From: Octopus vulgaris
Lineage: Eukaryota
NCBI GenBank assembly: GCA_951406725.2
Contig: OX597830.1
Span: forward strand, 33,108,001 to 33,172,000
Reading direction: 5' to 3'
Length of the DNA: 64,000 bases
A model generated the notes under the pieces. That model made no database searches and had not been told where the DNA came from. It worked only from the letters and a program-made list of their open reading frames with translations. Position numbers and translations under genes: made by a program. Below, one piece after another: positions 2,407 through 64,000 of the stretch (position 1 is its first letter; each line of letters opens with the position of its first letter).

Positions 2407-2589
2407 TGTGCACATGGAGACATGAATGTACACATAGACACGCATATATTTGATACTAAGTAAAGAAGGAAAAGTAGGACGAGCATAATTTTGACAGAGA
2501 AAAGATAAATGGATATCAGTAAATATTGAAACAAGTGGAATAATGGGGCCTACTGCAAGGCTGTGCTTGGGTAATGCAGTCGATAATAG

Positions 2590-3985
2590 ATGGGGATGAT
2601 GGTGGTAGTGTTGGTAGTGCAAAGGATGATGTTGATGGTGATGATGTTGTTGACAGTGATGATTATGACAGTGACGAGTATGTTGACGGTGGTGGTGATG
2701 TTGGCAGCGATGATGATGTTGGCAATGATGGTGATGTTGACAGTGATGATGATGTTGACAGTGGTGGTGATATTGACGGTGATGATGATGTTGGCAATGA
2801 TGGTGATGTTGACAGTGATGATGGTGTTAACAGTGGTGGTGATGTTGATGGTGATGATGTTGTTGACAGTGATGATGATGTTGACAGTGATGATGATGTT
2901 GACAGTGATGATGATGTTGACAGTGATGATGATGTTGACAGTGATGATGATGTTGACAGTGATGATGATGTTGACAGTGATGATGATGTTGACAGTGGTG
3001 GTGATGTTGTTGGCAGTGATAATGTTGACGGTGATGATGTTGTTGACAGTGATGATGACGTTGACAGTGACGAGGATGTTGACGGTGGCGGTGATGTTGG
3101 CAGTGATGATGATGTTGACAGTGGTGGTGATGTTGATGGTGATGATGTTGTTGGCAGTGATGATATTGACGGTGATGATGTTGTTGACAGTGATGATGAT
3201 GTTGACAGTGATGATGATGTTGACAGTGATGATGATGATGTTGACAGTGGTGGTGATGTTGACAGTGATGATGATGTTGACAGTGATGATGTTGTTGACA
3301 GTGATGATGATGTTGACAGTGATGATGATGTTGACAGTGATGATGATGTTGACAGTGATGATGATGTTGACAGTGATGATGTTGTTGACAGTGATGATGA
3401 TGTTGACAGTGATGATGATGTTGACAGTGATGATGATGTTGACAGTGATGATGATGTTGACAGTGATGATGATGTTGACAGTGGTGGTGATGTTGACAGT
3501 GATGATGATGTTGATAGTGATGATGATGTTGACAATGATGATGATGTTGACAGTGATGATGATGTTGACAGTGGTGGTGATGTTGACAGTGATAATGATG
3601 TTGACAGTGATGATGATGTTGACAGTGGCGGTGATGTTGATGGTGATGATGTTGTTGACAGTGATGATGTTGACAGTGATGATGATGTTGACAGTGATGA
3701 TGATGTTGACAGTGATGATGATGTTGACAGTGGTGGTAATGTTGACAGTGGTGGTAATGTTGACGGTGATGATGTTGGCAGTGATGGTGATGTTGACAAT
3801 GATGTTGATATTGAGTGATGATTACGTTGATGGTGGTGGTGAAAGTGATGGTAGGGTCGATGATGATAAAGATTATTATGATGGTGATGATGATGGTGGG
3901 AATGGTGGTGGTAGCGTTGGTATTGATAGTGCAAAGGATGATGCTGACAGTGATGATGATGTTGATGGTGATGATGTTGACAGTA
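2590..3985. repeat. 18-bp minisatellite, consensus GATGATGATGTTGACAGT, dozens of copies
   Basis: The tandem array is directly visible. It produces the DDDVDS, MMMLTV and LSTSSS ORFs. Confidence 0.95.
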
Positions 3986-4201
3986 TATTTTTGCCCTCAT
4001 AACAATAGTAATACCAGTCAGCGCTTTCACTGGTGGTTGGTATTCCCATTGGTACCAGTGCAGATCATGATGGTAGTCATGACCAATGTTATCAAACAGG
4101 TGCTTCTCTTATTTTTGTGCTCCTCCCCCAATTCTTGTTAATTAATCAGAATGAGTGGCAGCTATCATAATCTTGTAATGTCCTTCAGGTATTGTAATAC
4201 T

Positions 4202-51489: not shown

Positions 51490-52659
51490 ATTTATTCAAT
51501 AAGATCGCTATTGGCTTCAACTATGACCTCCACATGACTTCAGAATCTTCTGCAATGCTTCTGGATGTTCTCCTTGTTTAAGTTGGTGAATGCTTCCATA
51601 AAACTTGCCTTCAGTTCATCTTTGGTGTTACAAGTTTTGTTGGTCTCTTGCTCAACTGCATCCACACATAACAACTAAGGCAGTTGCAGTCTAGAGAGTC
51701 ATGTGGCCAAATGTTAGGGGTGGTGTGGTCGTAGAAATTGTTTGACTGCCATGACTGGGTTCTCCTGCTTGTGTGGTATGGTGCAGAGTCCTGTTGCAAG
51801 ACATAGGGTTTTCCAGCAGCCACCCTCTTGACCCAAGGCAACACTACCTCCTCCAGGCACTTAATGTAGGTCTCCGTGTTGAGTGTGAGGTTGTGTGAGA
51901 AGATGAATGGAGGCATAACATCACCATTACTAGTGATCAGTCCAAACACCATGATGTTGACTGGATGTTTGCTTTTTATCACTCTTGGTACATGTTTAGG
52001 GAACACAGCAAGCCAACGGTTGTTCTGTGTGTTCACCATCTGATCCTGGCAGAATTTTTTTCTTGTCTGGGAAAAACCAAAGCATGTTTGGTTGGAGGGG
52101 ATGCTTCAGTTTTTCAAAAGCTTTGTAGTACGGTTTGCCCTCTTGTCCTTGATGGCTTAGATAAAAATTGGTTCATTCTTATCTTGTATGAGGAATACCG
52201 AATGTCTTCATGCACTACCTGCTTGATAAGAAACTCAGACACTCCTATATCCCTGGTGATGGACCTGACTGACTTGGAGGGATCGTTGTCAATCATGGCC
52301 TGGATCTCATCAAAAAATTCAAAAGTTCTTTTCTTATCAGAATGATTGGTGTGAGTTTTCTGAGCTGCCATACCTTCCTAATCACCATTAGACTCATCCA
52401 TGTCTTGCCAAATCCTCTGTAATGTCCTCAGATTGACACCCAATCACTCTGGAACGTTTGTATTGGAGCTTCTGGTGTGAATGCCAAGTATATCATTACC
52501 AAATTTCTGGCAGAGTGAATTGTGTTGTGGTGATGTTTTTCTTACACACATTGCACAACTGACCCCACCATACTGAGTAGTAAACAAAATCAAGAAGAAA
52601 CAATGCACATACACAAAATTAAAAATATAAAATGCCAGCGGTTTACCCATCGCACCCTG
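51490..52659 (-). mobile_element. Tc1/mariner maT-type (DD37D) transposon relic with a transposase pseudogene
   Basis: Translates as WFFPDK..FCQDQMVNTQNNRW...IMVFGLI...QQDSAPYH...WPHDSLDCNCLS, with 37 residues between the QQD aspartate and the mutated third-D position, and a C-terminal EANSDLIE*. The 5' end TA|CAGGGTG is at 52659. Frameshifts are present. Confidence 0.85.
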
Positions 52660-52809: not shown

Positions 52810-54063
52810 CAGGGTGCATAAGATATTTGAGGACAGATTTATGTTTATAAAAACATAAATATATAACAACAGATAACAATTTTATTTTTCAAAAAATGCT
52901 ATGAGGATAAAAATAAACCTTCTTTCTATAATGTTAATTCAATAAAGTCACCTTCAGCATCAACAACTGGTTCTGTATGAGATCTAAATCATCTACATGC
53001 TCAATTCAAGTGATCCTGGTTCATTTTGGACATTACTCTGACTATTCCAGGTTTCAAAGAATCTTTGGTGTTATAGACATGTTCATTGACCTCTCTCTCT
53101 CAACAATGTTACACATGTGATAGTCCAATGGATTGAGATCTGGGGAATTAGGAGGCCAAATGTTAGGTGTTATGTGATCATGAAAATTTTGAGCCATCCA
53201 TTCCTTTGTTATTAGAGCCATGTGTGATAGTGCAGAATTTTAGTAAAAAACATATGGCCTTCTATTGCATACACTATCTATCCAGGGTTTAAGAATTATT
53301 TCCATGACCTCAATGAAGGTGGCAGATTTAACTCTAAGGCCTATGGGGAAAGATGTAAGGAGGCACCACATGTCCTTCATTGCTGAGAACCCCTAAAACC
53401 ATGACAGTTGCAGGAAATTTTGTATGCATAATACTTGTAACTTCAGAAAGGTCTACACATAACCATCTGTCATTTCATCTGTTAACTTTTTGATCTTGGT
53501 CGAAGTTTTTCTCATTTAAGAAAAACCAAACCAAATCTTCTTCTGCTGGATTTTCCAGTTTGTTTAAGAGCCTTTTAGATCTGATGCAGGGATTTTCTTT
53601 TGCTTTTTCTGACAAACTGACCTTTCCTCATCATATAAGACTTATATCTGATGTCTTCATGGACAACATTTCTGACTTTTCCTTCTGACACATGGGGATC
53701 TTTTGCAATTGACCTCATGGACTTTCTGGGATTGTAATCAATGGTCTCTTGAACTTGGTGGATAAATTCAGGTGTTCTGATGATTTCAGAGCATTTAGAA
53801 TACATTTTATGCTTTGATACTGGGGATACATTTCCATCTTCTGTCTCTAACTCCTTACAAACTTTATTGACGAAAGAAGTGGCAACTTTTAAGAATTGAA
53901 ATATTTCTAAATCGCTATGTTCAGCATTTATAACCACAATAACAGCATGCTTCTTCATTTCTTGAGTAAGTTGAGGGTCTGTCATTATTATTTTCTAAGA
54001 CAAAGATTATACAGCATTATCAAAAAATGCAGCAATGACCCAAAACAGATATGTCCTCAAAAA
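52810..54063 (-). mobile_element. Second, distinct maT-like Tc1/mariner relic
   Basis: The N-terminal HTH ORF is at 53575-53985 (NPRKSMRSIAKD..VSE...RNVVHEDIRYKSY), followed by WPPNSPDLNPLDY and a C-terminal DAEGDFIE. A TIR cagggtgcataagatatttgaggaca is at 52810, and a partial partner tgtcctcaaa is near 54052. Confidence 0.85.
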
Positions 54064-56420: not shown

Positions 56421-58689
56421 TTGTGTGTATCTATTAATATCCAAAATTAAACTTACATCTTTATTTAAGGTGTTGGGGTAAGGACTAACTCCATGTATAC
56501 CTCACACACTTCACACATCTTCCGAAGTACACACACTTAAACACACACCTACTCTCATACACACATGCACACATACTTGTGTTTGCCAAGAGAGAATGGA
56601 GAGAGAAAGAATACACATACATAGAAAATCTCAGATGGAAAAACCATAAATTTCCTTTAGTTTAAATGTACGTTGTGTTCTTGACAGAAAATTATATAAT
56701 AATTAAATGAACAATTAGATATTATCTCAGGTCTATACACATATTAGCAATCATAATTTCTAACTTTGATACAAGCCTACATATTTGTTAAAAAGACCAC
56801 ATATTCGTGTTTGTGTGTGTGTGTGAGTGTGTGTGTACGTGTGTGTGTGTATTTATTTATTTGTTTCTACTCCAACTTTCCTACATTAAAAATTATGAAA
56901 ACAACAATAAGAATAAATTTAACAAACGGTGATAATTTTTTTGTCTTTCTCTGCTAAATGATATATTGTATCAATACCAGCGTTGAATAAAATCTAAAAA
57001 TAAAGTAAATTTGGAACTAAATTCTAAACAAACTGAAAGCACAATAGACGATTCTTGATTGGTTAAGAATTCTATGTATTTTGGTCTTGTTGACACACAA
57101 ATGGCTGCTTTAACTTCAGCTATAATTGATCTTCAAACACAACTGCAATAGTAAGAATAATGAAAATAATAACAAGTAATTTTTAAAAAATTTTCCTTTG
57201 TATCTCTAACTCTTTCACACACCCTCTTTCTTGCTGTCTTTTATTCCATTTTATTTATTTATTTTTTTCCATCAAAAGAATATTTGAGGAACTTTTGAAG
57301 AATTTAATGTTTGATGTAATTTAAAATGAGATATTATTTATAATTAAACTATTTAAAAATAAAAAAAAATAAAGGAAATGGTAAAAACATCTTGTGAGAA
57401 TTTTCTATAAATTATTGTCATCTGTGTTATATTCTATGTTTGTAAGTATGTATTGAGATATGTATGCACATATGTTTGTATGTATGCATGAGTGTGTATG
57501 TGTGTGTGTAGAAAAGCATACGTGCATCTTTACTGACAAACACACTCGTACACAAACGCATGCATACACATATATAAACAGACACAGCTTGTGCATGAGC
57601 ATATAAATGAGAGTGAAGTTGAAGTTGATTCATTAACTTGTATTTTTCGTTGTCTATTCAAGCTTTCTATCTCAATACAAAACTGCTTATTAGTGAAGAA
57701 GTGTTTGTTTTGGTGTTGGAGAAAGAGTAAGAAGTATGTGTGTGCAGAGTGGGGGGTAGTGGTGCAGATTGTCATATGCTTTTTCCTTATAATTTTACAC
57801 ATTTTGTTTTTGTTTTTGTACATTGTCTTTATTTATATATCTATTTATTGTAGTATGGTTTTCTTTTGTCTTTTGTGAGTTTGTATTCTTTGTAATCGAT
57901 GGCAGATGCTTGATAAATACCTTCAACTAAGCAATCAGTGAAATTCTGTCACTTAACAAAAGGTGTTCAGGAATGCATGATGTTGGCGTCCTGGGAACAA
58001 AAGAAAAAGGTCAAAGTTTGGTACCATTTCTTGTCATTATTTCGTAAAGGTTGTTAGGTTTTCCAGCAGTGCTCTCCATTCTTGTTGCTTTTTGTTTTCA
58101 TTGTAACAGTTGTATTTCTTGTTGCTGCTGTGTATATAATTGCTGTTGTTATTTTGTTGATACGGTAACAGCCACTGTACAAATTCTCATTACATTTGTT
58201 TGTCTTGGTGCTTTTATTTCTGATAAACTTCAGTTGGTTTTCTTAGATTTTTCTCCTTTTGTTTGCTTATATAACACCGAGTTCCTTGCTGGTTTCTATT
58301 GCATATATTATTTGCAGTTTCTCATTACAGCTGTTGTTATAGTTTCTCATTATATATGCTGTTGTCATTTTGTTTGTTATTGTAAAAAGGCAAAGACAGT
58401 ATAAATTCTTATAATAAGAGACAAAAATGGATAAATATCATTTATCTCCTGTACTTGAGAGAAAAAATAGTATCAAATTAGGGATCTTTTGTGACCGAGA
58501 ACATTAGCAACTAAAATGAGTTAAATTTCATATCTTTTGTCACCAGTATTATCCATCAATAGGAGATCAGTTCCATTGGGTTTCCTGGATGTTGTGACAT
58601 TCATGCCTTTCCTCAAGAACTTAGCATCTAAAGTGAAAAAAAAGTAGAAGTAAAAACCTTGAATTGAAACAATCTTAAGTGTTTCTGTT

Positions 58690-59060
58690 CTAAGAAGCTT
58701 GCTTACCAACCACATGGTTCCGGGTTCAGTCCCATTGTGTAGCACCTTGGGCAAGTGTCTTCTACTATACCCTCGGGCCAACCAAAGACTTGTGAGTGGA
58801 TTTGATAGCTGGAAACTGAAAGAAGCCCATTGTATATATGTATATATATATACATATATATATGTGTGTATGCATATGTTTGTGTGGCTGTGTTTGTTCC
58901 CTGCAACATTGCTTGACAACCGATGCTAGTGTATTTACATCCCCGTAACTTAGTGGTTCAGCAAAAGAGACTGATAGAATAAGTACTAGGCATACAAAGA
59001 ATAAGTCCTGGAGTTAATTTGCTCAACTAAAGGCGGTGCTCCAGCATAGCCACAGTCAAA
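58690..59060 (+). mobile_element. SINE family C
   Basis: Same head, CORE-like segment, internal microsatellite and tail as the other copies. Confidence 0.85.
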
Positions 59061-59619
59061 GAGTATTTCCTACAATTTTCCACATATCCTCCCATGATTG
59101 TTTCCAATATATCTAGGGATTAATATTCATGTAAAACAGGAGTGGGGAAACTTTTTAGTGTGGTGGGCAAAAATTTCTAACAAAAAAAAGGTGAATCACA
59201 AGTTCTAACTCTTAAATCTGTGTAGGTCTTCTACATATCTATGTATAATTCAAACTACATTAATAAAGATAAATTTAACACATTAAACTAACATGTAGCG
59301 TCTTCATTATTGCAGCCACTGAATTTAGGACGTTTTTATTACTTATGGTGGAGTGCAATGGCCCAGTGGTTAGGGCAGCAGACCCCGGAAATATCAGCTA
59401 AGACTAGGGTAGCAACATTGATAAACAGATAAATAAAACACATTGTCAGCTAAGAGGAGATAATTCTGTACATAATGAACAAAAGAGGGAACTATAAAAA
59501 CTAAGCTCACCCTTATTAGAAGAGGAATATTCTAAAGGGGGCTCATTGTCTCTTCTCTCTCTCTCCCTCACTTCTTTCTCTCTCTCTCTCTCTCTTTCTA
59601 TGTCTCTCTTTTTTCTTTC

Positions 59620-59930
59620 TTGCATGGTTCTTAGTACATTTAACTGGGTTGCTAAATAGGACCAGATGCTTATACTGTAATGGTAAGACAGTCGACTGTC
59701 TTTTGTGTATGGACAGCCAAAAATTGTATGTTGCAAATAATAAACAACTGGAAATATAACACAGATTTATTAGGAAAATTGATATGAGATTTGGATTAAG
59801 AGAATGTGCCAAGACAGCTTTGAAGAGAGGAATATTAAGAACATTAATATCATACGAGAAAAAGACACAGAAATAAGAGAATTACAAAAAAACACAGACA
59901 TAACAATTGCTTAGGAATCAATGAAGTGTA
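59620..59930 (+). mobile_element. Highly decayed R4/Dong-like reverse transcriptase fragment
   Basis: Translates as LLNRT...NGKTVDCLLCMDSQKLYVANNKQLE...IDMRFGLRECAKTALKRG...IREL...LGINE. This resembles SHLLYMDDLKLY...IGMEFGLDKCAK...YKYLGI.E. Confidence 0.7.
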
Positions 59931-59992
59931 CAACACAACGCACACACACACGCACACACACACACATACACACACACACACTGTAAGGGGTT

Positions 59993-60299
59993 TGTTGTTT
60001 GTTCCTTCTCGAGCCATGCCTGGCTCATAAGTGCCGGTTTCCTGGTTTCTTGGCGTATAGGTTCCCCACCTGGACGGGACGCCGGTCCGTCACAGGTGAG
60101 TTGCAAGACGCAGGAGGAAAGAGTGAGAGAAAGTTGTGGCGGAAGAGTCAGCAGAAGTTTTGCCATTACCTTCTGCCAGAGCCGCGTGGAGCTTAGGTGT
60201 TTCACTCATAAACACACACATCGCCCGGTCTGAGATTTGGACCCGCAATCCCTCGACCGTGAGTCCGCTGCTCGAACCACTAGGCCATGTGCCTCCACT
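59993..60299 (-). mobile_element. Full-length tRNA-headed SINE (family F) with a 12-bp TSD
   Basis: ctgtaaggggtt is duplicated at 59981-59992 and 60300-60311. The minus-strand head is gtggaggcacatggcctagtggtt. Related partial copies lie at about 54660-54830 and 31540-31760. Confidence 0.85.
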
Positions 60300-60825
60300 C
60301 TGTAAGGGGTTAGAAAGGACTGTTATAGATGTATTAGTTTAATCAACACTCAGGCTGTCCCCGTAATGAATTTTAATTATAATATTCTCAACTGAATGCT
60401 AAATGAGCTCCTAACACCAGATGTACATACACTAATGACATTCACATCATCATCATCATCATCGTCATCGTCATCATCGTTGTCGTCGTCATCATCACCA
60501 TCATCATCATCATCATTTAACATCTATTTTTCTATGCTCTTATGCATCCAATGCAATTTGTTGAGGCAGATTTTCAATGGTCAGCTGCCCTTCCTGCCAC
60601 CAGCCCTCACCTGTTGACAAAGAGGGTAATATTTCCCCATGGCTTGACGTGTTTTCCGTGAAAGACTAGAACTGAATAACCCTGCATGTATAATGGTGAT
60701 ACTTATTTACAGCTGCCACATGATGTTAAGATGAGGGCAAACACGTACACATGCATGCTTAAGCAGTCCAAAGAAAAGTCACAATATGGACAATATTTAG
60801 CAAAAAAATGGAAAAAGAACAGAAT

Positions 60826-60861
<36 letters not shown>

Positions 60862-61008
60862 AAATAAATATAAGAGAGTGGTCACTATATTGCTCACTCT
60901 AGCACCAGTTAATCCAAAAGGTTTCAACCACGAAAATACATGCTTACCATGAAAGTCAGTACGATTGTTAGCTCACACGGACAGGGCAAATAAAAAATAA
61001 CAAAAATA

Positions 61009-61106
61009 CAGATTATTTTGGGACAATTGTTTCGCTATTAATGAATTAAATGTAATTTTACTTACAAAAAAAAATCCATTTGTAGCTCGTCAGCCAAGAC
61101 TATCTG
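61009..61106 (-). ncRNA. Minimal type I hammerhead ribozyme motif (inverted copy)
   Basis: Reverse complement of 61541-61639 with an identical core. Confidence 0.8.
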
Positions 61107-61540
61107 GATGAAACCCACTCAATCACACGCCAGATTTTACCATAACGATAAATACTTTCATGGTAAGCATGTATTTTCGTGGTTGAAACCTTTTGGATTA
61201 ACTGGTGCTAGAGTGAGCAATATAGTGACCACTCTCTTATATTTATTTTGTAAAAATATTATAATATGTTATAAAATATTATAATAATCCAGGTTTCTCG
61301 AAGCACTAGGCCACTTGGTGTTGAATAAATATACTATTAAATTAGTATCTAATTCTCTCACCCTTATTAATTAATTATAATTATGCTGCATTTATTTCTA
61401 AATGCTGTATTTGTTTTCCGTGAAAGTTTGGCGCGCTGTTGGTTGGGGCATTTGAATTATAACGTCGGATGTAATCAATTGAACCACACGCGTATTTATC
61501 GTTATGGTAAAATCTGGCGTGTGATTGAGTGGATTTCATC

Positions 61541-61639
61541 CAGATAGTCTTGGCTGACGAGCTACAAATGGATTTTTTTTTTGTAAGTAAAATTACATTT
61601 AATTCATTAATAGCGAAACAATTGTCCCAAAATAATCTG
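61541..61639 (+). ncRNA. Minimal type I hammerhead ribozyme motif, predicted cleavage after GUC at 61626
   Basis: Stem I is cagatagtcttgg paired with ccaaaataatctg. The core CTGACGA is at 61554-61560. Stem II is gcta...tagc with an extended hairpin. GAAA is at 61615-61618. Stem III is c-aatt-g, followed by TC. Confidence 0.8.
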
Positions 61640-61931
61640 TATTTTTGTTATTTTTTATTTGCCCTGTCCGTGTGAGCTAACAATCGTACTGACTTTCATG
61701 GTAAGCATGTATTTTCGTGGTTGAAACCTTTTGGATTAACTGGTGCTAGAGTGAGCAATATAGTGACCACTCTCTTATATTTATTTTGTAAAAATATTAT
61801 AATATGTTATAAAATATTATAATAATCCAGGTTTCTCGAAGCACTAGGCCACTTGGTGTTGAATAAATATACTATTAAATTAGTATCTAATTCTCTCACC
61901 CTTATTAATTAATTATATATATATATATATA

Positions 61932-62318
61932 CTCTCTTTTACTCTTTTACTTGTTTCAGTCATTTGACTGCGGCTATGCTGGAGCACCACCTTTAGTCGA
62001 GCAGATTGACCCTAGGACTTATTCTTTGTAAGCCTAGTACTTATTCTATCAGTATCTTTTGCCAAAACGCTATGTTATGGGGATGTAAACACACCAGCAT
62101 CAGTTGTCAAGCGATGTTGGGGGGGACAAACACAGACGCACAAACATATACACACACACATATACATATATATGATGGGCTTCTTTCAGTTTCTGTCTAC
62201 CAAATCCACTCACAAGGCTTTGGTCGGCCTGAGGCTATAGTAGAGGACACTTGCCCAAGGTGCCACACAGTGGGACTGAACCCGGAACCATGTGGTTGGT
62301 AAGCGTACTACTTACCAC
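61932..62318 (-). mobile_element. SINE family C
   Basis: Near full-length match to the other family C copies. Confidence 0.85.
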
Positions 62319-62774
62319 AACGATAAAATTTCAAATTTTAGCATAAGAACAGAAAAATTAGGTAGGGGTAAGCGATTACATTAACCCCAGCATTCAACTG
62401 GTACATATGTTAATTAAAAAGCGGAAAGCAAAGTCGAACTTGTTATGTGATCTAATTTTGAACTCAGAATGTAAAGACATACAGACTGCTGCTACACAAC
62501 TGGTACTTAATTTATCAATTCTGAAGGGATGAAAGGCAAAATTGACGTTGGCAGAATTTGAACTCAGAATGTAAAGACAGACAAAATGCTACTACTCATT
62601 TTGTTTGGTGTGCTAATGATTCTGCCAGCTTGCAGTGCTAGAATAACGATAATAATAATGATGATGATAATAATAATAATAATGGTATTAATAATAATAA
62701 TGATATTAAATATAATAATGATAATAATAATAACAATGATGATAATAACAATAACAATAATAATAATAATAATG

Positions 62775-62822
<48 letters not shown>

Positions 62823-63610
62823 TTAATAATAATAATGATAATAATAATAATGATAATAATAGTAATAATAATAATCCCTTCTAGCACAAGTACAAGGCTG
62901 ATCCAATACTATTATCAGGGTGGTGAATAATAACAATTAACAATAATAATAAAAATGATGATGATTATGATCATGATGAGTAGGAGGAGGAGGATTTCTA
63001 GCTTTGGCACATGGCTATAAATTTGTTGATAAGAGGCATAGCAAAGATTAAATGAAAGAAAAGACAAAATTAGCATCAATACAATTTGAAGTAAAATAAA
63101 AAAAAAATCATTAAAACAAAATACAAAATTAACATCAATATTTTACCATTTCTAATCTTAACAGCATTAGAATAATTAATATTGGTTTTTTAACATTGGC
63201 AGAAGGCCAGAAATTCATACTGGAAGAACATAAAAAGAAGAGCCCCCCCCAATCAGTTCATGGGATTGTTCTGGGACTGGATTATGAAGTGATTTGAACG
63301 CAGAAAGTAAAGTAATTTTAGTTTTTGAAAGATCAAACTATTTGTTGTATCTGTATTTACCGATAAATCCAGTGAGTTTTGCGTCTGATTCTTTTTTTTT
63401 TGCTCACCCATACCCTTAAATGTATTCACTTTTTCTCTTTTATTTTCAATGGTATCGAGTTTTGTCTTGATCAACTCAAAGATCCAGTTTGACCTTTAAC
63501 GAGCAAGTCTACTTAGTCTTTTATCTATGGATAGATGTTTTATTTTCCTTGCTTAGCTGCGTATACATACACATGCATCTGATTATCTATCTATCTATCT
63601 ATCTATCTAC

Positions 63611-63718
<108 letters not shown>

Positions 63719-64000
63719 ATATACATATACATGTATGATGTATGTATATATACATATACATGTATGATGTATGTAAATATATATATATATGTATGTATAT
63801 ATGTACATGTACATACACACATATATATATATATATATATATATGCATATATACATATATATGTATGCATGTATGTATGTAAATATATGTATATATGTAT
63901 GTATATATGTACATGTACATACATATATATATATATATGCATATATACATATATATGTATGCATGTATGTATGTATGTATGTATGTATGTATGTATGTAT

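Follow-up and report, generated by a model that had tools for sequence, protein, structure and literature searches.

The window, a stretch of 64,000 nucleotides of Octopus vulgaris DNA, contains a short repeat that lacks an open reading frame (ORF), carries a predicted hammerhead ribozyme and lies within a (TA)n microsatellite, which raises the questions of what kind of element it represents and how it came to be inserted there. The family to which it belongs, here called family A, is very probably a non-LTR retrozyme. The reading that best fits the data as a whole, to which we assign a probability of roughly two in three, is that ribozyme monomers circularize and that the reverse transcriptase (RT)-endonuclease of a Penelope-like element (PLE) copies them into (TA)n from two sites.

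The element, its genomic family and its ribozyme

An earlier, sequence-only reading described 61154-61917 as 1.42 copies of a 538-bp unit whose overlap shows no differences, and a repeat comparison agrees: the direct repeat 61154-61379/61692-61917 has a period of 538 and 0 mismatches over 226 bp. The unit has a GC content of 32% and, as also claimed, contains no ORF, the longest stop-free frame read round the circularized unit being 58 aa on the plus strand and 88 aa on the minus strand. Right about the unit, that reading missed an inverted partial copy at 60861-61155, which carries a second hammerhead and differs from the unit by one substitution and one T-run difference. Its placement of the array between two (TA)n runs does not hold for the 1.42 copies alone and does hold for the head-to-head element 60861-61917 as a whole, which is what these runs flank on both sides (Table 1).

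Table 1. Features of the element in the window, and loci of related families. Positions called q are nucleotides after the ribozyme cut, counted in the natural 537-nt monomer; L070 is the locus label of the window's own copy.
Feature	Position or loci	Strand	Remarks
(TA)n target remnant, left	60828..60860	.	
Inverted arm, 0.55 unit (q404-537 then q1-161)	60861..61155	-	3' end at 60861 = site 1 (q161)
Second complete type I hammerhead, inside inverted arm	61009..61106	-	mirror of 61541-61639; predicted cut 61022/61021
2-nt microhomology where the 5' ends of both arms meet	61154..61155	.	L070 overlap 2
Forward arm, 1.42 units (q66-537 then q1-291)	61154..61917	+	3' end = site 2 (q291)
Type I hammerhead	61541..61639	+	predicted cut 61626/61627; stem II extended, loop 3 a palindrome
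Hairpin and CTTAT motif ending at site 1 (q161 = 61787)	61748..61787	+	putative priming site for site 1; position conserved in sister family B
16-nt block that families A, B and C share unchanged	61845..61860	+	between the end sites
CTTAT motif with an AT-rich stretch, up to site 2 (q287-291)	61895..61917	+	putative priming site for site 2; last bases common to TA target
(TA)n target remnant, right	61914..61932	.	
Sister-family loci (B, C, D)	L124-L150, L224-L226, L231, L234, L235, L189:5858-5950, L186:4054-4116		
PLE family 1 loci	L101-L117, L183-L222		26-mer in its repeat: 702 exact matches
PLE family 2 loci	L243-L271		open frames of 784 aa; opposite-strand pairs frequent; 40-nt tail akin to the family 1 tail

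Elsewhere in the window, very high-copy short interspersed repeats occur at 58690-58800, 60100-60300 and 61935-62310, the first reaching about 500,000x single-copy depth in a DNA-like sequencing run. Broken frames at 51611-52345 and 53575-53994 resemble, as judged by eye, a Tc1/mariner-type transposase, and 2544-4108 is a long low-complexity tandem repeat with stop-free frames of 390-480 aa on both strands, probably a minisatellite.

The genome searched comprises 2.8 Gb in 227 contigs. A 26-mer spanning the predicted cut has 2,080 exact matches in it, against 0 for a control pattern, so the element is not an assembly artefact, and its dispersed arrays settle the concern, raised earlier, that it might be single-copy. 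The first 100 matches sit in 32 loci, from which we estimate about 670 loci in all. Of 997 candidates from a similarity search, 40 were scored; they gave 228 matches, and full-length matches are 95-100% identical. Family A arrays reach about 16 units, with single arms of up to 12.7 units; dispersed copies match those of 12-16 units at 99-100% identity, and the arrays have no terminal repeats except partial units, hence no LTR structure. Family A is a young, multicopy, protein-free tandem repeat.

Four sequencing runs appear RNA-like, their nature being guessed and the data being assembled contigs. In these, 25-30 of 30 bins of the element are covered, and the repeat at 58690-58800 far more deeply. 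Unique window DNA is nearly uncovered in three of the runs, which thus behave like RNA runs, its depth in a DNA-like run being about 47x. Contigs span the cut in three of the four RNA-like runs, a pattern that read-through of 2,000 copies would equally produce.

The complete type I hammerhead reported by the sequence-only reading is present, with every part at the positions given. Stem I (61541-61553/61627-61639) has two mismatches (A.A and C.A) and one G.U; the core CTGACGA, stem II GCTA/TAGC, GAAA and the GTC triplet follow, and the 2-bp stem III is capped by a 4-nt palindromic loop. The C.A mismatch belongs to the commonest form of family A. Covariation redraws stem I, previously given as 13 positions with 2 mismatches: a helix of 6 bp is followed by a 2x2 internal loop and a second helix of 5 bp. 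Stem II runs on into a long hairpin.

At least three further hammerhead repeat families share this layout. Family B, with a 528-nt unit, was found through a chance match beside a PLE and has 101 exact matches to its cut-site 26-mer in the genome; families C and D were found after it. Across 17 hammerheads from the four families, which represent four lineages and not 17 independent events, 91% of cells are paired, compared with 30-39% in slid controls. The stems also covary, as the earlier reading had anticipated for a genuine ribozyme: 12 of 25 base pairs are altered on both sides, including all six of proximal helix I, and family D is shifted by one column in the stem II alignment, which lowers these counts. 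The unit RNA folds with z = -5.9, and 0 of 100 shuffles are equally stable. The proposed Rfam check returned no hammerhead at E<=1 in 58000-64000, probably because stem II is about 45 nt longer; its 53 matches there are all small-RNA models on simple repeats.

Some variation among the sister families deserves record. Family C has the cut triplet GTT, family D a differing loop 3, and a U4C core variant is present in family B and in one A subfamily. The family-B array at L121-L123 (G000:C13:22646000-22647900) consists of three repeats of a rearranged unit with a period of 594 bp, an internal inversion and a hammerhead whose 5' half is mostly missing.

Canonical and minimal hammerheads are defined in PMC4209133. 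There, the minimal PLE form has helix III reduced to the core, an extra base at the foot of helix II, a helix I of 4-5 bp and a poorly defined loop 1. The hammerhead of family A instead has a 6-bp helix I with an internal loop and a 2-bp helix III with a 4-nt palindromic loop, so it does not belong to the minimal class; judged by its sequence, it is the canonical metazoan type described in the same paper.

Insertion anatomy and candidate enzymes

Seventy-two loci were mapped: 40 from top-scoring matches, including the window's own, and the 32 that hold the first 100 exact matches. In 110 of 112 cases, (TA)4 lies within 40 nt of the outer 3' end, and (TA)n occupies both flanks in most loci, so a target-site duplication is not readable. 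The 112 outer 3' ends form two classes, 56 at q145-195 and 56 at q278-296, with modes at q161 (site 1, 37 ends) and q291 (site 2, 48 ends); none falls at the ribozyme cut. The 32 non-inverted loci use the two sites 16:16. The remaining 40 are head-to-head, and all 40 have one end of each class, which would have a probability of 0.5^40 if ends were independent. All five further inversions among eight family-A loci, part of a set of 20 loci from another motif list, are also one-of-each.

Both end sites are preceded by a CTTAT motif and site 1 additionally by a hairpin. Site 1 terminates in TTTT, and hardly any ends fall in the TATA-rich stretches at q170-195; the ends are therefore not explained by simple annealing to TA. 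Family B ends at homologous sites (q~162 and q~278), and its 18 distinct inverted loci comprise 14 that are cleanly one-of-each, 4 that are disturbed and 0 with two ends alike.

The 117 5' ends are uniform over 12 bins round the unit (p = 0.56); 5 lie within 10 nt of the cut (4.4 expected) and none within 2 nt. The earlier reading saw the array begin and end mid-unit relative to the cut and suggested looking for permuted endpoints among genomic copies. The 5' ends are indeed spread round the unit; the 3' ends lie off the cut but are not arbitrary, being fixed at two sites. The related idea that copying continued beyond the cut, on a circular or multimeric RNA, is supported by the 100 of 122 arm segments that cross it. 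The joints of 35 of the 40 inversions share 0-6 nt, and in 20 of the 40 both opposed arms exceed one unit. The longer arm may carry either end type, and the two junction points are unrelated.

This anatomy resembles that of PLEs. In the anole Poseidon element PAc, both target strands are extended, two internal start sites bound the tail and a dimer is predicted (PMC11167929); in that assay the start site was equal on both strands, and ribozyme mutants inserted normally from unprocessed RNA, both of which count against our best reading. Inverted PLE copies and one-sided tails, often on one end only, are reported and left unexplained in PMC8557442. Family A has the same traits: it inserts into an AT-rich or microsatellite target, has two putative start sites within the unit, forms partial tandems and shows an inverted upstream copy and a tail confined to one end. 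Inversion is seen at 40 of its 72 mapped loci, each with both kinds of end, and this is the anatomy expected of a non-autonomous PLE. Unlike them, it lacks an ORF, has many units per arm and carries a canonical rather than a minimal hammerhead. Its two sites are 130 nt apart, and this “tail” of 130 nt, compared with 30-40 nt in PLEs, counts against our best reading. Non-autonomous elements of Chlamys such as MRC1 (PMC8557442) are similarly PLE dependants with multicopy head-to-tail insertions, but MRC1 resembles its autonomous partner at the 3' end, and no such resemblance was found for family A. Insertion by a Penelope-type enzyme is highly likely.

Twin priming of LINE-1 offers a further comparison. 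In that process a single RNA is copied from primers on both target strands, and the resulting inversion carries microhomology; the position of the second start varies, and the two arms meet without overlapping. In family A, by contrast, the second start is fixed and the arms cover the same sequence, often several times.

Candidate enzymes were sought through the GIY-YIG domain (PF01541), a minority of 6,136 and 14,240 candidates being examined. Two young PLE families emerged, with many open frames of 781 aa (family 1) and 784 aa (family 2) that include GIY-YIG. Both the RT and GIY-YIG domains were demonstrated in the family 1 frame, which has a C-x4-C-x2-C motif ahead of the nuclease, as in Neptune/Nematis. 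Its homologue search returned 543 proteins, the few named ones coming from bivalve gill-symbiont assemblies. Both families contain a U3-A8 hammerhead core, a form described in PMC4209133, where circles are proposed as PLE templates.

Both families end in (TA)n, with either a short end or a 40-nt tail. Among 57 loci of family 1, every one of the 8 head-to-head copies combines a tail with a short end; four of the eight had been selected as opposite-strand pairs without regard to their ends. Of 49 plain copies, 5 bear the tail. In family 2, three opposite-strand pairs, assumed to be contiguous, follow the same rule. Having the same target and intact frames, the two families are candidate partners for the retrozyme RNA. 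No sequence kinship between the unit and PLE repeats was found in 118 PLE-holding loci, mostly of these two families, so the partner enzyme is named by its behavior only. The upstream repeat begins at -451 to -510 in 5 of 8 full-length copies of family 1, and in 7 of 8 inversions the tail is on the longer arm; this suggests a linear RNA primed at both repeats. That family 1 looks like a user of linear RNA counts against our best reading.

Template of the arrays and alternative explanations

When the longest arm per strand is compared, the outer fragment of L182 being set aside, a single difference is seen among 823 informative comparisons of arms within a locus, whereas the figure between loci is 20% (permutation test: 0 of 5,000). 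One RNA, or one source, thus serves both arms, and we consider it very probable that both derive from a single template or a single source array. Haplotypes are mixed in 2 of the 72 loci, L043 and the outer fragment of L182, so template switching occurs, which speaks against a strictly single template. The switch in L043 lies within the array, whereas in L182 about 70 nt of unrelated sequence separates the two haplotypes; deletions and short jumps are seen in L065 and L169.

Variants within arrays fall into three groups: 44 distinct ones fixed through whole arrays, 92 private ones, and 11 common to some units. The contrast of the fixed variants with the partly shared ones, each of the latter limited to one locus, points to a monomer bottleneck and counts for our best reading. 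The 11 partly shared variants compare with 0.45 expected by chance; 10 occur in non-adjacent units, and those of L034 and L042 are present in both arms. At q503 of L045 the minor base is C twice and T once, that is, two different minor bases at one site. Such recurrences would be expected if one monomer circle bearing a modified or damaged base were copied several times over; gene conversion or assembly error could also produce them. On the ribozyme strand, whole-array variants lean toward A>G (15 versus 6 T>C; binomial p = 0.01), as A-to-I editing of the RNA template might produce; private variants do not (7 versus 12), the contrast between the two groups being borderline (Fisher p = 0.055). 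A monomer circle is the probable template.

Our best reading can be set out in five steps. Arrays would be transcribed, and the hammerhead would excise 537-nt monomers that are ligated into circles, as structure, covariation and published retrozymes suggest. A Penelope-like RT/GIY-YIG protein, likely a dimer, would then nick (TA)n, the target being read directly from the flanks. Reverse transcription would begin at q~161 or q~291, where the ends are observed. If both target strands are extended, the two would use different sites of a single RNA molecule; unlike ends and a shared haplotype are what is seen. Finally, each cDNA would circle for a fraction of a turn up to about 12 turns and halt at random, after which two cDNAs would be joined through 0-6 nt of microhomology, or a single cDNA joined to the target. 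The lengths, the random 5' ends and the microhomology are observed, and the circle is the part supplied by reasoning.

The main rival keeps the same Penelope-type enzyme and start sites and replaces the circle by a long, uncut linear array transcript, making ribozyme and circles dispensable for insertion. The anole PLE's main substrate in vitro is indeed unprocessed RNA (PMC11167929), and read-through transcripts would have no fixed 5' end. Fully homogeneous arrays also exist (L031, L180), so linear copying would likewise yield homogeneous daughters and matching arms. Against this, new variants appear already fixed in all units, and despite 92 private variants no order of them is common to different mapped loci. 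A multimer with many copies of both sites would permit inversions with two like ends, of which there are 0 in 40; incomplete cleavage would make 5' ends accumulate at the cut, yet 0 of 117 lie within 2 nt of it; and one site reading as several bases within an array is left unexplained. We therefore regard the linear multimer as unlikely.

Local DNA amplification and fold-back fit worse. In the former, a monomer or dimer would be retrotransposed and the array would then grow by unequal crossover or slippage, as has been proposed for retrozymes as satellites (bioRxiv 10.64898/2026.07.22.740005). Whole-array variants would be expected here too, but growth of this kind sits poorly with opposed arms that both exceed one unit in half of the inversions and have variants in common, with shared minor variants that are non-adjacent (10 of 11) and do not carry neighboring variants along, and with the near-identity of 12-16-unit arrays to dispersed copies (99-100%). 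It is very improbable. Slightly less probable still is a single cDNA whose inverted arm is its own fold-back copy, with the endonuclease trimming at the other site. Such an intermediate would account for the shared haplotype and the short microhomologies, and PMC8557442 ascribes the tail to endonuclease resolution of an intermediate. However, either end type may lie on the longer arm, the junction points are unrelated, both end types also occur alone (16:16), and the minor variants of one L034 arm are not mirrored in the other.

The suggested linkage to an RT and GIY-YIG ORF was not seen: no array is joined to a PLE frame among the loci examined (flanks of 1.5-6 kb), and such an ORF is absent between repeats of the unit, contrary to what defines an autonomous PLE. 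The match at L120 proved to be a separate family-B array. That the units are nothing but an autonomous Penelope element's terminal repeats, or stem from faulty assembly, is hardly credible and at this locus largely refuted: four of the 72 array loci do contain PLE fragments, and a PLE is found 2.3 kb from one family-B array, but the fragments sit downstream, at a great distance or beyond intervening microsatellite, 0 of 20 further loci have a PLE match, 5' ends enter TA runs, other flank or the opposite arm, and the unit is present in sequencing runs of three organisms from 8 studies.

Relation to known retrozymes and significance

Non-LTR retrozymes were defined by Cervera and de la Pena 2020 (PMC7229834), who showed circles in coral, mussel and axolotl and proposed reverse transcription of circles into tandem cDNA, naming PLEs as candidates. 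Family A shares the traits of these elements: ORF-less tandem units that measure a few hundred bp, with one type I hammerhead each, low GC, a self-paired RNA, no LTR, and PLEs in the same genome. The retrozyme or Penelope-dependent identity first proposed for the locus is accordingly upheld by tandem ORF-less units, a covarying hammerhead, and a multicopy, young family without any copy found attached to a PLE frame. Family A differs in its 537-nt unit (about 170-400 there), its long stem II, its insertion into (TA)n, its two fixed 3' ends and its head-to-head arrays; and circles, shown in those animals, are inferred here. The main text of PMC7229834 makes no mention of the terms inverted, microsatellite, TPRT, octopus or cephalopod.

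Vertebrate retrozymes have been interpreted by Li, Clavereau, Pollet 2026 (bioRxiv 10.64898/2026.07.22.740005) as PLE derivatives and kin to pLTRs. The unit of family A lies within their size range of 51-972 bp, and co-occurrence with PLEs and claimed dependence on them are common to both. The link to PLEs is pLTR kinship in that study, which suggests local DNA amplification, and insertion anatomy here; its sample is without molluscs. It also reports no in vitro cleavage in 8 of 9 frog retrozyme dimers, which, like the C.A mismatch in helix I of the commonest form of family A, counts against our best reading. In the literature covered, we found no cephalopod retrozyme and no retrozyme ends of this two-site or inverted kind, while subscription papers, supplements or repeat databases may list the family. 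We regard the retrozyme family as new and as an element of an expected kind; its insertion anatomy is the new part.

These findings bear on two mechanistic questions. The return of animal retrozymes into the genome is still a hypothesis in the literature covered, where the origin of tandem, inverted and one-tailed Penelope insertions is called undefined. Family A offers a 537-nt substrate, two mapped start sites, a strict one-of-each rule and about 2,000 young units, and the same genome also holds three sister families and two intact candidate enzymes. With all of these in one genome, both questions can be tested in the tube and by census.

The insertion anatomy links the spread of retrozymes to Penelope chemistry. 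Whether each head-to-head array is the record of one reaction, a PLE RT-endonuclease dimer acting on one ribozyme circle, is to our minds evenly balanced. The two halves of the dimer would each nick one (TA)n strand, start at their own site and both travel round the ring, and modified or damaged bases of the single RNA would be recorded as recurring misreads. If true, the arrays would be direct evidence, written in the genome, that animal retrozymes retrotranspose by a rolling circle, and the inverted repeats and one-sided tail found in Penelope elements generally would be explained as well.
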